Source of the DNA: Escherichia coli
GTDB taxonomy: Bacteria; Pseudomonadota; Gammaproteobacteria; Enterobacterales; Enterobacteriaceae
Direction: 5' to 3' (one strand)
NCBI RefSeq assembly: GCF_041886205.1
Contig: NZ_CP169029.1
DNA length: 64,000 bases
Position 1 is the first letter of the stretch; each line of letters begins with the position of its first letter. A model generated the notes under the pieces. That model worked only from the letters and a program-made list of their open reading frames with translations, was not told where the DNA came from and searched no databases. The position numbers and the translations under genes are program-made. This document shows, piece after piece, positions 12,978 through 58,038 of the stretch.

Positions 12978-13307
12978 GAAAAGCCGCAGGGCGTCAACCG
13001 AAAAATGACCACTGATGGTGAGGAAAAATCAGGGAAGTTGAAATTTTTTCATCTGAAGAAAAAAACAGGGATACCAATGTTCAGTATGAGGTGAATATTG
13101 GGAAAATGCTGACGTTATTAATTTTATATTTATTTAAATGATGATTCATTCTGATTTATTTACTTAAAAAATGAATTATATTTTCAAATAAAACAAAAAG
13201 ATACTTTAAGCCTCTCCGGCCTCCTCGCTTTTAATTTTGAACCACTTCAAACAAATAATAAATTCCTAAGAATTAAGTTGCAGACAAATTATACATCCCT
13301 CACGATA

Positions 13308-13335
13308 AGTAGAACGTTCTAGTAGAACGTTCTAC
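13308..13335. promoter_or_regulatory. Tandem palindromic operator-like site upstream of the PTS gene
   Basis: aagtagaacgttctagtagaacgttctact: two abutting copies of a palindrome centred on CG (TAGAACGTTCTA); the second copy is a perfect 16-bp palindrome AGTAGAACGTTCTACT; lies about 55 bp upstream of the PTS start codon. Confidence 0.5.
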
Positions 13336-13389
13336 TTATATAAATAATCGTTCTTGCGCAGTCATCTGCGCTATTCGGGGGAAATCAGC

Positions 13390-14889
13390 ATGGGTCTGAT
13401 ATCGAGTGTCGTAAAATCACTTTCTAAACTGTCGATGATTGGTCGCGCGCTGATGCTGCCAATTTCGCTTCTGCCTGCCGCCGGGTTGTTACTGGCGTTC
13501 GGCGATAAATTCCACATGCCGTTGATGATGAATGCCGGCGGTATCATTTTTGATAACTTGCCGATGCTTTTTGCTATCGGTTCTGCCGTGGGACTGGCTT
13601 CAGAATCGGGTATTGCGGCGCTATCCGCAGCTGTATCCGTCTTTGTCACTAATATCACCATCGGTACTGTCCTTGGCATCACACCAGAGATGGCCGGGCA
13701 AGGCGGTAAATATGCGATGGTGGTGGGGATCCCAACGCTGCAAATGGGCGTCTTCGGCGGCCTGATATGCGGGGTTCTGGCGGCGTGGTGTTACAACCGT
13801 TTTCATACCATGCAATTACCAGAATTCCTTGGCTTTTTCTCCGGCAAACGCTTCGTGGCTATCGCGACGGCTTTTCTTTCCTTCATCCTTGGCTTGTTAC
13901 TGCCCTATGTCTGGCAACATATTCAGTCGGGAATCGATGCCCTATCAGTTATCGTCAATGGTGATAACCAGGCGGCATCGACCTTTATTTTTGGTGTGAC
14001 AGAACGTGCGCTCATTCCGCTTGGCCTGCACCACATCTGGTATCCATCGTTCTGGTACTCTTTTGGTGATTACACCACCCAGGCAGGCCAAATGATCCAC
14101 GGTGACCAAACAATTTGGTTCAAAATGCTGGAAGAAGGTGTGAAATCGTTCAGTAGCGACAGCTACCATAACGCGGGTAAGTTTTTACAGGGCGAGTTTC
14201 CGCTCATGCTGTTCGCGCTGCCTGCGGCGTGTCTGGCGATGTACCATGAAGCACACACCAAAAATAAGAAAATTGCCGCCGGTATTCTGTTCTCTGCCGC
14301 ATTAACCTGTTTCCTGACAGGTATTACAGAACCCGTTGAATTTACCTTTATTTTCGTGGCACCGGTACTGTACGTATTTAACGCGATAATGGCTGGCCTC
14401 TCCTATATGGCGATGTATCTGCTCCATGCCCACATTGCAAAATCCTTCTCGGCAGGGCTTATCGATTATATTTCGTTTGGCATCCTGCCATCATTTAACG
14501 GCTACGAAACCAACTTCCTGAGTGCCATTATTGTTGGCGTACCGATGGCGATTATCTATTACTTCACTTTCCGCTTTGTTATTCGCCGTTTTGATGTGAA
14601 AACACCGGGTCGAGCCGAAAGCACTGTATCCGCTAACGATAAAACCGATGATGAACTGGCTACGGAAATTATCAGTCTGCTGGGCGGCCAACAAAATATC
14701 TCTTCCGTCGCATCCTGCATAACGCGCCTGCGTCTGGAAGTGGCGGATAAAGATGTGGTTGATAAAGATGGACTGAACAATGTCGGTGCTCGTGGTGTGG
14801 TTTTCGTCGGCGAGAACGGCATTCAGGTGATTTTTGGCGCACGTGCACAATTTATCGCGCAAACCATGTCGACGATGATTGGCAAATAG
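13390..14889 (+). CDS. PTS glucose-family EIICB permease (substrate unknown)
   Basis: ORF-track entry 13354..14889; start placed at ATG 13390 (GGGGG 8 nt upstream). Multi-TM EIIC domain followed by an EIIB domain with the phospho-Cys motif SVASCITRLRLEV. Confidence 0.8.
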   Translation: MGLISSVVKSLSKLSMIGRALMLPISLLPAAGLLLAFGDKFHMPLMMNAGGIIFDNLPMLFAIGSAVGLASESGIAALSAAVSVFVTNITIGTVLGITPEMAGQGGKYAMVVGIPTLQMGVFGGLICGVLAAWCYNRFHTMQLPEFLGFFSGKRFVAIATAFLSFILGLLLPYVWQHIQSGIDALSVIVNGDNQAASTFIFGVTERALIPLGLHHIWYPSFWYSFGDYTTQAGQMIHGDQTIWFKMLEEGVKSFSSDSYHNAGKFLQGEFPLMLFALPAACLAMYHEAHTKNKKIAAGILFSAALTCFLTGITEPVEFTFIFVAPVLYVFNAIMAGLSYMAMYLLHAHIAKSFSAGLIDYISFGILPSFNGYETNFLSAIIVGVPMAIIYYFTFRFVIRRFDVKTPGRAESTVSANDKTDDELATEIISLLGGQQNISSVASCITRLRLEVADKDVVDKDGLNNVGARGVVFVGENGIQVIFGARAQFIAQTMSTMIGK

Positions 14890-14962
14890 TCATAAGATTA
14901 CGCTTTGTTGGAGGTTCTGGTCCCTGACTGGAACCTTCGTGCTTATTGTTCAGGGAGTGAAT

Positions 14963-15979
14963 TTGAAGAAAGTCAGCATAATTGATGTTGCCAAAAGCGC
15001 AGGAGTCTCAGTCTCTACTGTGTCGCTGGTCCTGCGCCAGAAAGGCAAAATTTCCGAGGCAACCATCGAGAAAGTTCATGCTGCCATTACTGAGCTTGGC
15101 TACGTGCATAATGTTGCCGCCGCCAATTTACGCTCCAACACTTCAAATCTTATCGGTCTGATTTTACGTGATTTTAGCGATAGCTTTTCCATCAAAGTGA
15201 TGGCAAGTATTGTTCAGGAACTGGAAGCACAAGGATATATGGTGTTCCTCGGGCAACCACAAAACGAGCATGAACATCTTGAACGCTGTTTGCTTTCCTT
15301 CAAGCAACAAGGTGTTGCCGGAGTGATTTATCTGGCTTCCGATGCGCAGCGTGAAACCTTACCTGGGCTGATTCGCCAGTGCCCTCTTCCTCTTGTCGTC
15401 ACCTCACAATCCCCCATCAAAGATGAATGCAATCTGGTATTGCGCGACAACCAGCAGGCGGCAAGCCTTGCCGCGCGTTATTTAATTGAGCGTGGACATC
15501 GTTACATTGCCTACCTCGGCGGCAGAGAAAGCGATCTTATCCGCCAACAGCGACTGGTGGGTTTTCGCCAGACCCTGGCAAAATTCGGTATTGCCAGTCG
15601 TGACGAGTTCACGCCAGCCTGTGACGATGATACATACGCCGCCAGCATGGCCACGCGCCAGTTGTTGGAGAATAACAATGCTATCACCGCCCTACTCTGC
15701 CATTCGCCCGAGGCCATGATTGGCAGCATCAACGGCATACATCAGGTGGGGCGCACCGTCGGGAGAGACATCTTTCTGACCCAGCAGGTGGCGCTAATTG
15801 GTTTTGAGGATATGCTGCACATCAACCTGACCTCTCCCGTTTTCACCTATGTCTCTTCCGCCAGTGAAGAAACCGGACGCCAGGCCGCTAATCTGATAAT
15901 CCGCAAATTAAAAGACCCGGAGCTGCAAATTCAAAGAATTGCGCTTTCGGGGCAACTGGTAGTGCGGGAATCGGCGTAA
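14963..15979 (+). CDS. LacI/GalR-family transcriptional regulator
   Basis: ORF-track entry 14879..15979; N-terminal HTH KKVSIIDVAKSAGVSVSTVSLVL followed by a periplasmic-binding-protein-like effector domain; start tentatively TTG 14963 (AGGGAG 5 nt upstream), start codon uncertain. Confidence 0.75.
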   Translation: MKKVSIIDVAKSAGVSVSTVSLVLRQKGKISEATIEKVHAAITELGYVHNVAAANLRSNTSNLIGLILRDFSDSFSIKVMASIVQELEAQGYMVFLGQPQNEHEHLERCLLSFKQQGVAGVIYLASDAQRETLPGLIRQCPLPLVVTSQSPIKDECNLVLRDNQQAASLAARYLIERGHRYIAYLGGRESDLIRQQRLVGFRQTLAKFGIASRDEFTPACDDDTYAASMATRQLLENNNAITALLCHSPEAMIGSINGIHQVGRTVGRDIFLTQQVALIGFEDMLHINLTSPVFTYVSSASEETGRQAANLIIRKLKDPELQIQRIALSGQLVVRESA

Positions 15980-16052
15980 TACAAATGCCGAATGAGATGT
16001 ACGTCGATATCGTCATCCGGCAATAAGGTGTAAACCAACTTAATGCGTATGA

Positions 16053-17606
16053 TTACTTGATATCCTTCACGCGCATACCGTTGAGCTGTTCATCCGTGAT
16101 GGTGTTACCCGCTTTGAAGTAATCAACCACGGCGTGATAAACATAATAACCGCCGGTTGTGTTGCGCGCCTGACCCTCGGTAAATGCGGTAAAACCATCT
16201 CCACCATCAGCAAGGAAACTCTGGGTGGCAATAGAATAAACTGTCGCATCTTCAATGGGTTTGCCATTCAGAGTCAGTGTGATTACCCGCTGACCAACCA
16301 GTTTGCTGCTGTCGTACTTCATTTCCAGGCCTTTCGATACCTGTAAAACGCCATTACTTAAACTTGCGCCGTGTTCCATCAAACTGCGTAATTGTTTACC
16401 CGTGAGTTCCATCGTCACCAGTTCGTTGGGGAACGGGAAGGTACTGATGACGCCGCCCATCGTAATCGCCCCTGCGGGGATCTCATTGCGAATACCACCA
16501 GAGTTGGTTAACGCCAATTGGGTGTTTTTACCCGCCGCTACCAGTAAAGCGTCCGCCGCCAGGTTCCCGAGGGAAGCCGATTCACCATAGGCACGTTTTA
16601 ATTCAACCGGCGACTGCGCCACCGTTTGTTGCACCACTTCATCAAGCTTTTTATTCCAGCCGTCGATTACCTGTTTCGTTTGCGGATCGGGCTTCCACTC
16701 GTCGGCGTAAATGGTTTTAAGCTCGAAGTTTTTCACCGTAAAATCATGCGGCTTCTCTTTGTAGTCGAGAACCAGTTTGCCCACATCAATCCCGCCGCTG
16801 TCAGTGGAAAGGATGAGTGTATTGCCGACTTTAATCGGTTCCGGCGTACCCACATGTGCATGTCCGGTGATCAAAATATCCAGCCCTTTCACCTGACTTG
16901 CCGTCTGGATATCTTTATCCAACGCGCGACGCACATCCGTGCCTCCCATACTGGACTGGCGGGCCGGAACACCTTCGTGGATCAGGGCGACGGTTAGATC
17001 AACCTTGCCTTTGAGTTCATCGATATAACGTTGTAGCCATTTAATTTCATCGCGCGCTTCAATACCCACGCGCGTGGCAGCAGATACCGTATCGTTGAAG
17101 GCAAATACGCCGTGCAAACCTATAACGCCAATTTTCACGCCGTCTTTTTCGATGATGGTATATGGCTTATCCCAGAATGATTTACTGCTGTTCTGATAAA
17201 AAACATTGCCCTGCACAATAGGGAATTTTGCCTGACTCAACTGTAATAATGTGTTGTCCCAGCCGTGGTCAAATTCATGGTTGCCTATCGTGACGGCATC
17301 AAACGGCATAGTATTCATAATATCGATAATAGCCTTACCTTTGGTCAGGCTGCTGATATAGGGCCCGGTAAAATAATCACCCGCATCAAAAAACCATGTC
17401 GCTTTATTTTTTGCTTTTTCTTGCTTAACCAGCGTAGTGATATTTGCCCAGCCGCCAATATCCCGTTTACCGTCAGCGATCCACGGCACTTTATAAGGCT
17501 CGACATGCGCATGGAGGTCGTTGGTATAAATGATGGTGACATCTTTGGCGCAAGCCCAGAACGGCAATGTTAATGCGATACCCGCAGCAAGTATTTTAAT
17601 TTTCAT
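16053..17606 (-). CDS. Secreted bifunctional metallophosphoesterase / 5'-nucleotidase (UshA-like)
   Basis: 517-aa ORF with signal peptide [20 protein letters not shown]; calcineurin-like motifs DLHAH, GDYF, GNHEFD, GHAH, then a 5'-nucleotidase C-terminal-type domain. Confidence 0.75.
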
Positions 17607-17738
17607 AAATAGTCCCTTTCAGTGATTTAAAGGATTGCTACATTACGTTCTGAAAGAGTTATTTATGTGAGAGTAATCACATCCGCAGGGGATAGTTGCC
17701 GGACAAAATCAACGACCTTGTGAAATCGTTGGTGATAT

Positions 17739-18869
17739 ATGTCGACTCTGTTTACGATTAATGCCTGCAAGTCGTTTGGTTGCCGTAATTTAGGGCAACC
17801 AACATCGACAGATTACAGCTGGCCAGACTATCGACTGGGTTATCCGGCACTGCACTGTCGGGCATGTGGAAGTTACCCGCCTTTGTTTGACGAACAGCAA
17901 TTTCGTGACTGGCTGTCAGTTCACTTATCTACTTTTGCAACTGAGAAAGGTCATTTCTGCCCGGTATGTTATGGCACAAAGACGATTTGTTATGGCCACA
18001 ATCCACAGGGGTCGCAACGCATTCAATGTCGTAACTGCAAAAAAGTCTGGACACCTAAACAATATCAGAAAGAAATAACGCCTCCTGAAATAATCGAAAC
18101 GGTTGCTCTTCTGGTGCCATTTCAGGGAGCCAGCAATGGGCAGAAACTGTATGTTTTAATCAGTTTTGATGCTCTTCGCGGTAATATTCTTCATCTTTCT
18201 ACTAATTACACGCAGCATCAGGCTGGAGAAAGTCTGCATTATCGATACAGAGGAAATGCAGAACCAGAGTTACACGAGAGTAATATTGTACAACGCGTTG
18301 ATATGCGCGAAGCACAATTTCTACGCCGCAGTCAGTTTGATGAAATTCAGTATGGCAGCGCAGCGCTCAAACGCAATGCTAAAGGTGTTATTCTGCGTCC
18401 GGTTATCACTGCACACGGGCATTTCAGAGTACTGAATATTTTATTCCCTACAGTAAAAACACATGTAATTTCACACGAGTGTTTTTTAAGAGGTGCCATT
18501 ATTACGGCATGGGCTGATCTTTTTCGCCAACAGCAAGGTGAGATTTGGTTTATTGAAGAGGAAATAGCTGACTATACCGATAATATGCCCTGGAGTTTTC
18601 AGGGAACAACTTATCACGGCTGGTGGAAAAATCAGTGGCAACTTTGGGTTCAGGGCAAAAATCGTAAAATGGTATGTGCATTAACAGGCGGAAATAACAG
18701 CAAAGCTGAAATGCTCTCTTTCGCAACCAGCAGACATTTTATCGACTGGCTACATAAACAAGCAGTATTTACTCACAGCACCCCGCTTTCCGCAGGGCGC
18801 GTTACGCAAATACTGCTTTCTCTGGCTCAGGATTACAACAACTGCGCCAGCCGGTTGATATCCGACTGA
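17739..18869 (+). CDS. Hypothetical protein with N-terminal Cys-rich zinc-ribbon-like motifs; function unknown
   Basis: 376-aa ORF; four CxxC pairs in the first ~100 aa (HCRACGS, CPVCYG, CRNCKK); lower GC than neighbours; 3' end overlaps the metL 3' end by 37 bp on the opposite strand. Confidence 0.5.
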   Translation: MSTLFTINACKSFGCRNLGQPTSTDYSWPDYRLGYPALHCRACGSYPPLFDEQQFRDWLSVHLSTFATEKGHFCPVCYGTKTICYGHNPQGSQRIQCRNCKKVWTPKQYQKEITPPEIIETVALLVPFQGASNGQKLYVLISFDALRGNILHLSTNYTQHQAGESLHYRYRGNAEPELHESNIVQRVDMREAQFLRRSQFDEIQYGSAALKRNAKGVILRPVITAHGHFRVLNILFPTVKTHVISHECFLRGAIITAWADLFRQQQGEIWFIEEEIADYTDNMPWSFQGTTYHGWWKNQWQLWVQGKNRKMVCALTGGNNSKAEMLSFATSRHFIDWLHKQAVFTHSTPLSAGRVTQILLSLAQDYNNCASRLISD

Positions 18870-21265
18870 ATCGCCCCGGCGGTGACATCGCGCCCTGCGC
18901 CTGGTCCGCGGATCACCAGCGGGTTATCGCGATACCAGCGGCTTTCGATGGCAAAGACGTTATCGCACGGCAGCAGTGATGCCAGCGGATGGTCTTCACG
19001 CACCGCTTCCACGCCCACACGCGCTTTGCCATTGGCATCGAAACGCGCCACGTAGCGCAGCACCAGCCCCATTTCGCGGGCCGCTTCCAGCCGTTGCACC
19101 ATCTGCTCGTTCAGTTCATCGCCATTTTCAAAGAAATGGTCGATGCTGCCGCCTTCGCAATGGGCAGGCACCAGCGATTCAACGCGCACCTGATCCGGTT
19201 CGATGTCGTAACCCGCTTCACGCGCCAGAATCACCAGCTTGCGCATCACGTCTTTGCCGGAAAGGTCATCACGCGGGTCAGGTTCGGTTAAGCCCTGCTG
19301 CCACGCCTGATCCACCAGCTCGGTAAACGGCACGCTACCGTCGAATTGCAGGAACAGCCAGGAGAGCGTGCCAGAGAAGATCCCGCTGATCGACAAAATA
19401 GTATCGCCGCTATCGATCAGATCGCGCACGGTATGGTTGATCGGCAAGCCCGCACCGACGGTGGCATTGTACAGCCAGTGACGCCCGGTTTTTTCGAAGG
19501 CGTCGTGGATCTGGCGATATTTATTGCTGTCGCTGGCTCCTGCCAGTTTGTTGGCGCTAATGACGTGGAAACCGTGGCTGGCGAAATCGAGATACTGGTC
19601 AGCAAGCTGCTGGCTGGCGGTAACGTCCAGCACCACTAAATCATCATACGGATGGGCGCGCATCCACAGGAACAGCGACTCTTCATCCTGCTCGACCGCT
19701 TCATCGTTGAAGAAGGCTAACGCGCGGCTGGCGTCCAGCCCGTCATAACTCAACAGGCTACGGCGGCTGTCCACCACACCTGCCAGCACAAATTCAAAGC
19801 CGGTACGCGCCGAAAGCGTGCTCTGCTCACGGGCGAACAGTTCCAGCCAGCGGGAACCGATATTGCCCTTGCCGAACAATACCAGGCCGATGCGTTTTTC
19901 CGCGCGGAAGACGGACTGATGCAGCCCCTGAATCAGGCTTTCGGTCGGGCCGGTGCGCAGTACTGCCACCAGGCTGATGCCGTCATCGGACTGCCAGGTA
20001 AACTCGACCGGCTGGCCTTTCAGTTGCTGCCAGAAGCGGTGGCAATGCAGCGGGTTACGGGTGACACCCGCCCCGACCATCGCCACTAGCGCCAGCCCCT
20101 GACGCAGGCGCAGTTCGCCAGGTAATCCCGCTTCGTCGAGAATTTTCAGCGCACTGTCAGCGACTTCTGAGGTGTAGCAAAATTGCAGCAACTGGCGATC
20201 GTTATGCACGCCAACCGCCAGTGGGCGCACCTGAGCACGTTTCAGGATCTGGTCGATCTCTTTATGCGCCAGTTTGAAATCCTGGCTGGCGGGCACCTGA
20301 AACTCAATCAAGCAGACATCATCGTGGCTGGTGACAATACGCGCTCCAGTACCGGAGGCCAGCACGCGTTCAATGCGCGTGGAACCTTGATCCGGCGTGT
20401 AGCTACAGCGCAGCTGCAGGTCGATTTCGCTGCCAGAAACCGGCTGTAAAGTACGGGCGTGAAGAACGGGAGCCGCCAGACGCGCCAGTTCGCTGGCTTC
20501 ATCCAGACGCAGCAACGGTAGCAGGCAGGCATCTTTCACTTTACGCGGGTCGGCACTGTATACCCCGGCGACGTCGCTCCAGATGGTTACACGAGAAACA
20601 CCCGCCAGCGCACCGATTTGTGTCGCGGAATAGTCGGAACCGTTACGCCCCAGCAGCACCGTTTCACCGGCGTTGTTACGGCTGATAAACCCGGTCACCA
20701 CCAGACGTTTGCCCGGATGTTGCACCAGTAGCTGTTGCAGCAACGGGTAAGAAAGCCCTTCATCAACCTGCGGTTGCGCAGCGCGTTCAGCGCGTAAAAA
20801 CTCGCGGGCATCAAGCCAGGCCGCTGACAGCCCTTGTTGATTAAGCACCGCAGACATCAGGCGTGCCGACCATACTTCCCCGTGGCCCACCACTTCCGCA
20901 TACACCGCGTCGTTAATACCGCTGTCGAGCAGCGCCGCCAGGCGCTCAAGATCGCTGACAAAAGCGCTAATGAGGCTATCGGCTTCTTCAGCGGGTAACA
21001 GACCGCTAATCAGATCGCACTGATAGCGACGCAGCGTTTGTTGAACCTGATGCGCAGAGAGACGATCGGTCTGGCTTAGTTTCAACCAGTTAATCAACTG
21101 GTTAGTGGTGCTACCGGCGGCGGAAACCACCATCATATCGTCAGGCTGAGAGTACTCCGCCATAATGCCCGCGACACGCAAATAACACTTCACATCAGCC
21201 AGACTACTGCCACCAAATTTATGCAGTTGACGACCTTTCGCCCCTGCCTGCGCAATCACACTCAT
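18833..21265 (-). CDS. metL: Bifunctional aspartokinase II / homoserine dehydrogenase II
   Basis: 810-aa ORF MSVIAQAGAKGRQLHKFGGSSLADVKCYLRVAGIMAEY. Confidence 0.95.
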   Translation of the reverse strand: MSVIAQAGAKGRQLHKFGGSSLADVKCYLRVAGIMAEYSQPDDMMVVSAAGSTTNQLINWLKLSQTDRLSAHQVQQTLRRYQCDLISGLLPAEEADSLISAFVSDLERLAALLDSGINDAVYAEVVGHGEVWSARLMSAVLNQQGLSAAWLDAREFLRAERAAQPQVDEGLSYPLLQQLLVQHPGKRLVVTGFISRNNAGETVLLGRNGSDYSATQIGALAGVSRVTIWSDVAGVYSADPRKVKDACLLPLLRLDEASELARLAAPVLHARTLQPVSGSEIDLQLRCSYTPDQGSTRIERVLASGTGARIVTSHDDVCLIEFQVPASQDFKLAHKEIDQILKRAQVRPLAVGVHNDRQLLQFCYTSEVADSALKILDEAGLPGELRLRQGLALVAMVGAGVTRNPLHCHRFWQQLKGQPVEFTWQSDDGISLVAVLRTGPTESLIQGLHQSVFRAEKRIGLVLFGKGNIGSRWLELFAREQSTLSARTGFEFVLAGVVDSRRSLLSYDGLDASRALAFFNDEAVEQDEESLFLWMRAHPYDDLVVLDVTASQQLADQYLDFASHGFHVISANKLAGASDSNKYRQIHDAFEKTGRHWLYNATVGAGLPINHTVRDLIDSGDTILSISGIFSGTLSWLFLQFDGSVPFTELVDQAWQQGLTEPDPRDDLSGKDVMRKLVILAREAGYDIEPDQVRVESLVPAHCEGGSIDHFFENGDELNEQMVQRLEAAREMGLVLRYVARFDANGKARVGVEAVREDHPLASLLPCDNVFAIESRWYRDNPLVIRGPGAGRDVTAGAIQSDINRLAQLL

Positions 21266-23050: not shown

Positions 23051-23148
23051 CGCCTGATGCGCTACGCTTATCAGGCCTACGTCATATTGCAATTTATTGA
23101 ATTTGCACGAACTTGTAGGCCGGATAAGGCGTTCACGCCGCATCCGGC
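23051..23148. repeat. RIP/BIME-type element (inverted REP pair with IHF-site-like spacer)
   Basis: gcctgatgcgctacgcttatcaggcctac ... tgcaatttattgaatttgca ... gtaggccggataaggcgttcacgccgcatccggc. Confidence 0.8.
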
Positions 23149-36822: not shown

Positions 36823-36956
36823 TGTAAATGCCGAATGAAGCGTTTATGCCGCATCCGGTAGTCCCGAAACGTGCGGGGGCAACCCCGCACACATCAATAA
36901 TCCCTCCCTTCCCCTGTGCTACACTTCGCGCCATTCCTTACTGCTTAGAGTTTGCT

Positions 36957-43867: not shown

Positions 43868-43966
43868 GCCGGATGCGGCGCGAACGCCTTATCCGGCCTA
43901 CAAAAGTTTGCAAATTCAATAAATTGCAGAATTCATGTAGACCTGATAAGCGAAGCGCATCAGGCC
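43868..43966. repeat. RIP/BIME-type element (inverted REP pair with IHF-site-like spacer)
   Basis: gccggatgcggcgcgaacgccttatccggcctac ... tgcaaattcaataaattgca ... gtagacctgataagcgaagcgcatcaggcc. Confidence 0.8.
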
Positions 43967-48945: not shown

Positions 48946-49029
48946 GTAGGCAGGATAAGGCGTTTACGCCGCATCCGGCATTTGAGCAGGATGCCTGATG
49001 CGACGCTGATAGCGTCTTATCAGGCCTAC
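48946..49029. repeat. REP pair (BIME)
   Basis: gtaggcaggataaggcgtttacgccgcatccggca ... gcctgatgcgacgctgatagcgtcttatcaggcctac. Confidence 0.8.
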
Positions 49030-51030: not shown

Positions 51031-51066
51031 ACCGCCGTTGGCGATGGTTCATTTTTTAAGCTGATA
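51031..51066 (-). terminator. Intrinsic terminator after sodA
   Basis: Minus-strand reading accatcgcc-aacg-gcggtggt followed by ttttttt. Confidence 0.6.
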
Positions 51067-51104
51067 TGCGGCGTAAACGCCTCATTGCAGCAGGCGGCAA
51101 ATGA

Positions 51105-57812: not shown

Positions 57813-57816
57813 ACAC

Positions 57817-58038
57817 TGCCGGATGCGGCGCGAGCGCCTTATCCGGCCTACAGGTCGGCAACAGTTGTAGGCCTGATAAGACGCGACAGCGTCGCATCAG
57901 GCATTGATTGCCGGATGCGGCACGAGTGCCTTATCCGGCCTACAGGTCGGCAATAGTTGTAGGCCTGATAAGACGCGACAGCGTCGCATCAGGCATTGAT
58001 TGCCGGATGCGGCACGAGCGCCTTATCCGGCCTACGGG
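57817..58038. repeat. Tandemly repeated BIME unit (~92 bp x ~2.4) between rhaA and rhaD
   Basis: Unit tgccggatgcggcgcgagcgccttatccggcctacaggtcggcaacagttgtaggcctgataagacgcgacagcgtcgcatcaggcattgat repeated at 57817-57908 and 57909-58000 with 3 substitutions; partial third copy to about 58038. Confidence 0.85.

Follow-up and report, generated by a model that had tools for sequence, protein, structure and literature searches.

The REP and BIME elements of Escherichia coli (types y, z1 and z2) are associated with the transposase TnpA_REP, to which the GTAG motif is essential, with no substitution tolerated (PMC8266576). When a REP lies at a distance of less than 16 nt from a stop codon, it is reported to lower the translation of the gene that precedes it (Liang, Rudd and Deutscher 2015, as summarised in PMC12306157). 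Hairpins at gene ends may also be compared with the intrinsic terminators that stand between convergent genes. We used these three kinds of element as references for two hairpins of the E. coli chromosome.

The analysed DNA (the window) is a stretch of 64,000 nt of contig NZ_CP169029.1, to which strain wlxctx60 is identical at 100%. The sequence-only reading of this stretch had drawn attention to two similar sequences located behind stop codons and sharing a 13-mer, AAATGCCGAATGA. Both are present, within 1-2 nt of the coordinates that it quoted (Table 1). The one behind glpK, designated here el2, genuinely belongs to the REP repeats of E. coli, though in a drifted (degenerate) form. The other, el1, which follows a gene for a LacI-family regulator, is REP-like, and a REP ancestry is plausible for it.

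Table 1. Coordinates of the features discussed, numbered from the first letter of the window
Feature	Position	Strand	Remarks
Insert in the metF-metL spacer	13044-18831		5.8 kb; K-12 has 200 bp of metL-metF spacer in its place
Module A: PTS EIIC and regulator	13044-15980		homology with strain GF4-3 stops at 15980
Perfect palindrome ATAAGTAGAACGTTCTAGTAGAACGTTCTACTTAT	13305-13339		35 nt; precedes the PTS EIIC gene by ~50 nt
LacI-family regulator gene	14963-15979	+	MalI per PGAP; TAA stop at 15977-15979
13-mer AAATGCCGAATGA, copy at el1	15983-15995		
el1, 37-nt imperfect palindrome	15986-16022		fold prediction; right arm ends at ~16022
Module B: 5'-nucleotidase and hypothetical protein	16033-18831		homology with the IAI39-type arrangement from 16033
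5'-nucleotidase gene	16053-17606	-	convergent with the regulator gene; el1 lies 30 nt past its stop on the - strand
Hypothetical gene	17739-18869	+	
metL	18833-21265	-	convergent with the hypothetical gene; 3' ends overlap by 37 nt (18833-18869)
Canonical BIME	23073-23114		naRNA4/ES036 match
glpK stop codon	36820-36822		TAA
13-mer AAATGCCGAATGA, copy at el2	36826-36838		
el2, degenerate single REP	36826-36861		between glpK and glpX; hairpin 36829-36860
GC-rich hairpin GTGCGGGGGCAACCCCGCAC	36871-36890		directly 3' of the glpK REP
Canonical BIME	43903-43944		naRNA4/ES036 match
Canonical BIME	48949-49026		naRNA4/ES036 match
Partial REP-model match	51066-51085		17.5 bits, model positions 10-29; outside the canonical REPs
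Array of five REPs	57814-58038		
Canonical BIME	57870-58032		naRNA4/ES036 match

The shared 13-mer and its alleles

Both copies of AAATGCCGAATGA begin 3 nt past a TAA stop, and there is no further exact match in the window. When up to two mismatches were allowed, four sites matched the 13-mer, while 2.8 were expected in the window. Since simple arithmetic predicts about 60 chance pairs of 13-mers in 64 kb (both strands), a 13-mer common to two sites is unremarkable by itself. The in-register agreement after the stop codons is nevertheless an outlier: the 20 nt that follow the two stops are identical at 15/20 positions, the top score among 1770 pairs (post-stop 20-mers of 60 long ORFs), and the runner-up reached 12/20. 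Moreover, both sequences fold into hairpins that begin 7 nt past the stop.

The exact identity of the two 13-mers depends on the alleles compared and is partly a coincidence. At glpK, three E. coli strains of other allele classes have the canonical G and read GCCGGATGA, which indicates that the GAAT common to el2 and el1 is a lineage-specific substitution in el2. In turn, the copies of el1 in E. whittamii, Escherichia sp. E1V33 and one E. coli strain read ACATGCC. A special GCCGAATGA subfamily of REPs joining the two elements was also considered, and is ruled out by the GCCGGATGA of the other el2 alleles.

The glpK-glpX element is a degenerate REP

The hairpin of el2 lies inside the glpFKX operon and has predicted fold energies of -10.3 (+ strand) and -13.2 kcal/mol (- strand). 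The spacer that bears it belongs to the core genome (found in 5425 of 5426 genomes). A 57-nt query containing el2 matched a median of nine places per E. coli genome (BLAST, 5424 genomes), mostly in unannotated spacers. Two of these further places, in the djlC-hscC and yddE-nhoA spacers, were inspected and proved to be canonical single REPs, the former being the closest paralogue (29/32 positions identical to el2, i.e. three differences).

To score the two elements, 16 canonical REPs of the window, K-12 and two other loci were assembled into a covariance model. Canonical REPs scored 44-64 bits, and el2, the top non-canonical full-length match, 15.5 bits (E 0.044 over 64 kb). The score of el1 was 4.9 bits, which is background: more than 42 background matches in the window lie above it. 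The description of both sequences as decayed REPs holds for el2, in view of its paralogues, of its agreement with the djlC-hscC REP and of its rank among the non-canonical matches to the model; in el1 only the two outer arms are REP-like, and a REP ancestry is plausible.

The E. coli REPs are imperfect palindromes whose conserved arms read GCC(G/T)GAT...ATC(C/A)GGC. Element el2 resembles them in its stem arms, in its GCGTTTA.GCCGCATCCGG core, in its extragenic position and in having dispersed paralogues. It differs from the canonical copies by several stem substitutions and by its foot, which reads GTAAAT-GCCG in place of the canonical GTAG-GCCG (GTAA plus two extra bases). The canonical GCCGGATG is present in other E. 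coli alleles of el2. The absence of GTAG marks the allele of the window as a decayed copy, which is probably immobile. No paper on a REP between glpK and glpX was found in a literature search. The GC-rich hairpin GTGCGGGGGCAACCCCGCAC, directly downstream, is not followed by a T run; it is kept in four aligned E. coli alleles.

An Rfam scan of the whole window returned no family at el1 or el2, and its matches (naRNA4 and ES036) fell only on canonical BIMEs. In the RefSeq record of K-12 no REP features are annotated at all, so a missing annotation says nothing about the nature of an element.

Anatomy of el1 and its place in the metF-metL spacer

Element el1 occupies most of the 73-bp gap that separates the convergent genes for the MalI-like regulator and the 5'-nucleotidase. 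It consists of a left arm (TGCCGAATGAGATGT), the loop ACGTCG and a right arm (ATATCGTCATCCGGCA), which are predicted to form 14 pairs with one A.C mismatch and one bulge (-16.8 kcal/mol; z about -2.9 on both strands). The five Escherichia copies of el1 give the same consensus fold; among them we found no compensatory changes in the stem, and one variant breaks a pair.

The likeness of el1 to the E. coli REPs and BIMEs lies in its outer arms, in its form of an imperfect palindrome and in its site between convergent genes. The arms, TGCCGAATG (TGCCGaATG) and CATCCGGCA, fit REP heads at 8/9 and 9/9 positions, respectively. The window holds a single match to the head-head pattern GCCGRATG..CATCCGGC, and shuffled sequences gave 0 matches; nor was the arm pattern found in another 566 kb of comparison sequence. 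The AAAT flank of el1 also occurs at a canonical REP head.

The 17-nt core of el1 fails to align with REPs, and its length and flanks are also of a non-REP kind. GTAG was sought on both strands of el1 and not found, the model alignment deleting the CUAC positions. Given the strict requirement for this motif (PMC8266576), el1, if derived from a REP, would be an immobile relic, and binding and cleavage by TnpA_REP would not be expected of it. Variants of el1 from other Escherichia scored 10.8-11.3 bits on the REP model (E about 0.8). A blastn search (E up to 10) revealed no dispersed copies, i.e. no paralogues: el1 was found in one place each in 7 of the 5426 E. coli genomes.

Two other origins were considered for el1 and rejected. 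Inheritance from the true malI is ruled out, as MalI of K-12 is only 37% identical to the MalI-like regulator and its gene is flanked on the 3' side by an unrelated terminator. An integron attC-like site is also improbable, judging by the sequence, since el1 lacks a GTTRRRY core and has no integrase in its vicinity.

The insert that contains el1 has a GC content of 0.47 (0.53-0.55 in the flanks). Strain GF4-3 carries the PTS and regulator genes of module A followed by other genes, and the IAI39-type arrangement, with 5'-nucleotidases, is present in 1843 genomes. In addition, Escherichia sp. MOD1-EC7003 (comparison locus L007) has a 2.4-kb insert between the positions corresponding to 16019 and 16039 of the window. 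Together with the limits of homology at 15980 and 16033, these breakpoints make el1 exactly the place where the two modules of the variable metF-metL spacer meet.

Several observations were made on the neighbouring sequences. Four Escherichia loci keep the perfect palindrome ATAAGTAGAACGTTCTAGTAGAACGTTCTACTTAT of module A at 100% identity, compared with 87-96% in the flanks, and the MalI-like repressor probably uses it as its operator. The insert of MOD1-EC7003 (L007 7017-9540), which interrupts the right arm of el1, contains two ORFs, one GNAT-like and one of 324 aa, as well as a fragment of SHMT; it ends with a short REP (25 bits; L007 9467-9498) beside the 5'-nucleotidase stop. In strain IAI39 the metF-metL spacer holds three 5'-nucleotidase genes that are paralogues (L003 6021-12267), and REP-like relics with GCCGAAT adjoin the stop of the first of them (L003 5908-5972). 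Finally, the metL-metF spacer of K-12 has a degenerate REP of its own, GGCCGGATTAAGCGTTTACGACGAATCCGGCA (L005 34350-34385), within the 200 bp that the insert replaces.

Eight Kluyvera loci likewise have the PTS and regulator genes as a pair between their metF and metL. The amino-acid identity of the pair (85-93%) is comparable to that of the flanking genes (86-96%). Within Escherichia, el1 accompanies the module in E. whittamii and in two other species of the genus. In K. sichuanensis a Kluyvera-type REP hairpin, TGCCGGACGGCGCAGCGCCATCCGGCA (L014 7022-7050), lies 6 nt past the stop of the orthologous regulator gene. It shares with el1 the outer arms (TGCCGGA..CATCCGGCA), the distance of 6 nt that separates TGCCG from the stop, and the metF-metL locus, but it is 27 nt long, has a GC core typical of Kluyvera REPs and directly abuts metL; it is at most a putative ortholog of el1.

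Host-type BIMEs follow the stop of the orthologous regulator gene in two further enterobacterial loci (L018 and L019). The record of L018 is labelled Chryseobacterium sp. 18061, and its PTS and regulator genes are enterobacterial (79-91% amino-acid identity); the assembly is probably mislabelled or contaminated. The REPs of this locus are of a non-E. coli type, presumably Klebsiella/Enterobacter-like. In Kluyvera genomosp. 3 an unrelated GC hairpin is located after the 5'-nucleotidase gene, which suggests that a plain hairpin without any REP history could serve the same role. Taken together, the loci of these relatives show that gene-end hairpins, often REPs, recur at this place, and that the segment cannot be regarded as a simple foreign island of recent date.

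Origin and possible role of the hairpins

To the observed anatomy, copy number, distribution and breakpoints of el1 we add, by inference, a REP ancestry and functions at the RNA level. The reading to which we give somewhat better than even chances is that el2 is a true drifted REP and el1 a REP-like relic of a different kind, with a 3'-end role exerted on RNA. The relic would come from a REP or BIME that belonged to the spacer or to the module, and would have lost what the REP transposase needs. Its most likely function would be that of a 3'-end hairpin.

On the transcript of the 5'-nucleotidase gene, el1 would read as an intrinsic terminator. The - strand forms a predicted 13-bp stem with a 10-nt loop (-16.7 kcal/mol), followed by UUUGUAUU, and the strand, on which UUUGUAUUAC follows the stem, carries a U-rich tail. 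In this stem and tail, and in its distance from the 5'-nucleotidase stop, el1 is like the intrinsic terminators found between convergent genes; it differs from them in the 10-nt loop, in the interrupted U run and in the lack of a U tract on the regulator strand. A consensus promoter and terminator scan of positions 15800-16250 returned nothing, with a loop range (3-8 nt) below the 10-nt loop of the el1 - strand.

On the regulator transcript, the hairpin may block 3' exonucleases and so protect the 3' end of the mRNA. Both el1 and el2 start 7 nt past a TAA, which is within the distance (less than 16 nt) given for translation-lowering REPs in PMC12306157. Unlike the REPs described there, el1 is not a demonstrable REP, and the link to tmRNA and expression is drawn here by analogy. 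By this analogy, el1 may hinder termination and lower the output of the regulator, and the same effects on the 3' end and on translation are proposed for el2 in the glpFKX operon.

It is possible, though we consider it doubtful, that el1 has no REP ancestry and is a hairpin or terminator of the kind that ordinarily closes a gene, its likeness to REP arms and to el2 stemming from GC-rich stems and chance. This would agree with its background score on the REP model, its single copy, the lack of GTAG and the U-rich tail of the - strand, as well as with the unrelated hairpins that Kluyvera genomosp. 3 and other genera have in this position and with the recent origin of GAAT in el2. Such a hairpin would not be expected to carry arms that fit REP heads at 8/9 and 9/9 positions, together with a flank (AAAT) known from a canonical REP head, or to match a true REP in register better than any other of the 1770 pairs; REP-type elements, moreover, recur at the locus in K-12, IAI39, MOD1-EC7003 and Kluyvera. 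A very unlikely explanation is that REP-like palindromes are the recombination joints at which Escherichia and Kluyvera swap modules (the PTS-regulator and 5'-nucleotidase sets and others) in their metF-metL spacer, el1 being a hybrid joint. The breakpoints against three arrangements do fall at both edges of el1 and within its right arm, REP-like relics occur at other joints (those of L003 and L007), and el1 matches the IAI39 relic and the flank of the K-12 spacer REP at 12/13 positions. However, gene ends are where breakpoints are to be expected in any case, since genes that are cut do not survive; the matches are short (shuffle p of about 0.01 each, with several comparisons made), and no hybrid REP was demonstrated.

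The least probable reading, and a highly improbable one, is that of the sequence-only reading, in which a host REP was inserted after the arrival of a foreign island, so that el1 would date a long residence in E. coli. The low GC content of the insert, its rarity in E. coli (7/5426 genomes) and the REP-like arms of el1 speak for such a history. They are countered by the Kluyvera loci, in which the PTS and regulator genes occupy the same position and are about as conserved as their flanks, and by the finding that E. whittamii and two other Escherichia species have both the module and el1, so that el1 need not have been gained in E. coli. Furthermore, el1 is devoid of the GTAG demanded by the E. 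coli REP transposase (PMC8266576), and belongs to no multi-copy family. The claim that a long-resident island had acquired a host repeat is thus unsupported, the more so as the GAAT that seemed to tie el1 to a host REP is lineage-specific in el2. With a module that is syntenic across genera and a hairpin that moves with it, the REP-like hairpin is no clock for residence time.

The interpretation that we favour remains that of a drifted REP at glpK and a REP-like relic of another kind behind the regulator gene. Beyond annotation its significance is slight, since el2 is a standard degenerate REP, and el1 an unannotated REP-like hairpin of a rare accessory segment. The case also illustrates that point mutations confined to one lineage can be what makes two elements agree exactly over a short stretch. 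The position of both hairpins, 7 nt past the stop, lies in the range reported to damp translation in PMC12306157, and may be of relevance to the expression of glpK and of the regulator.
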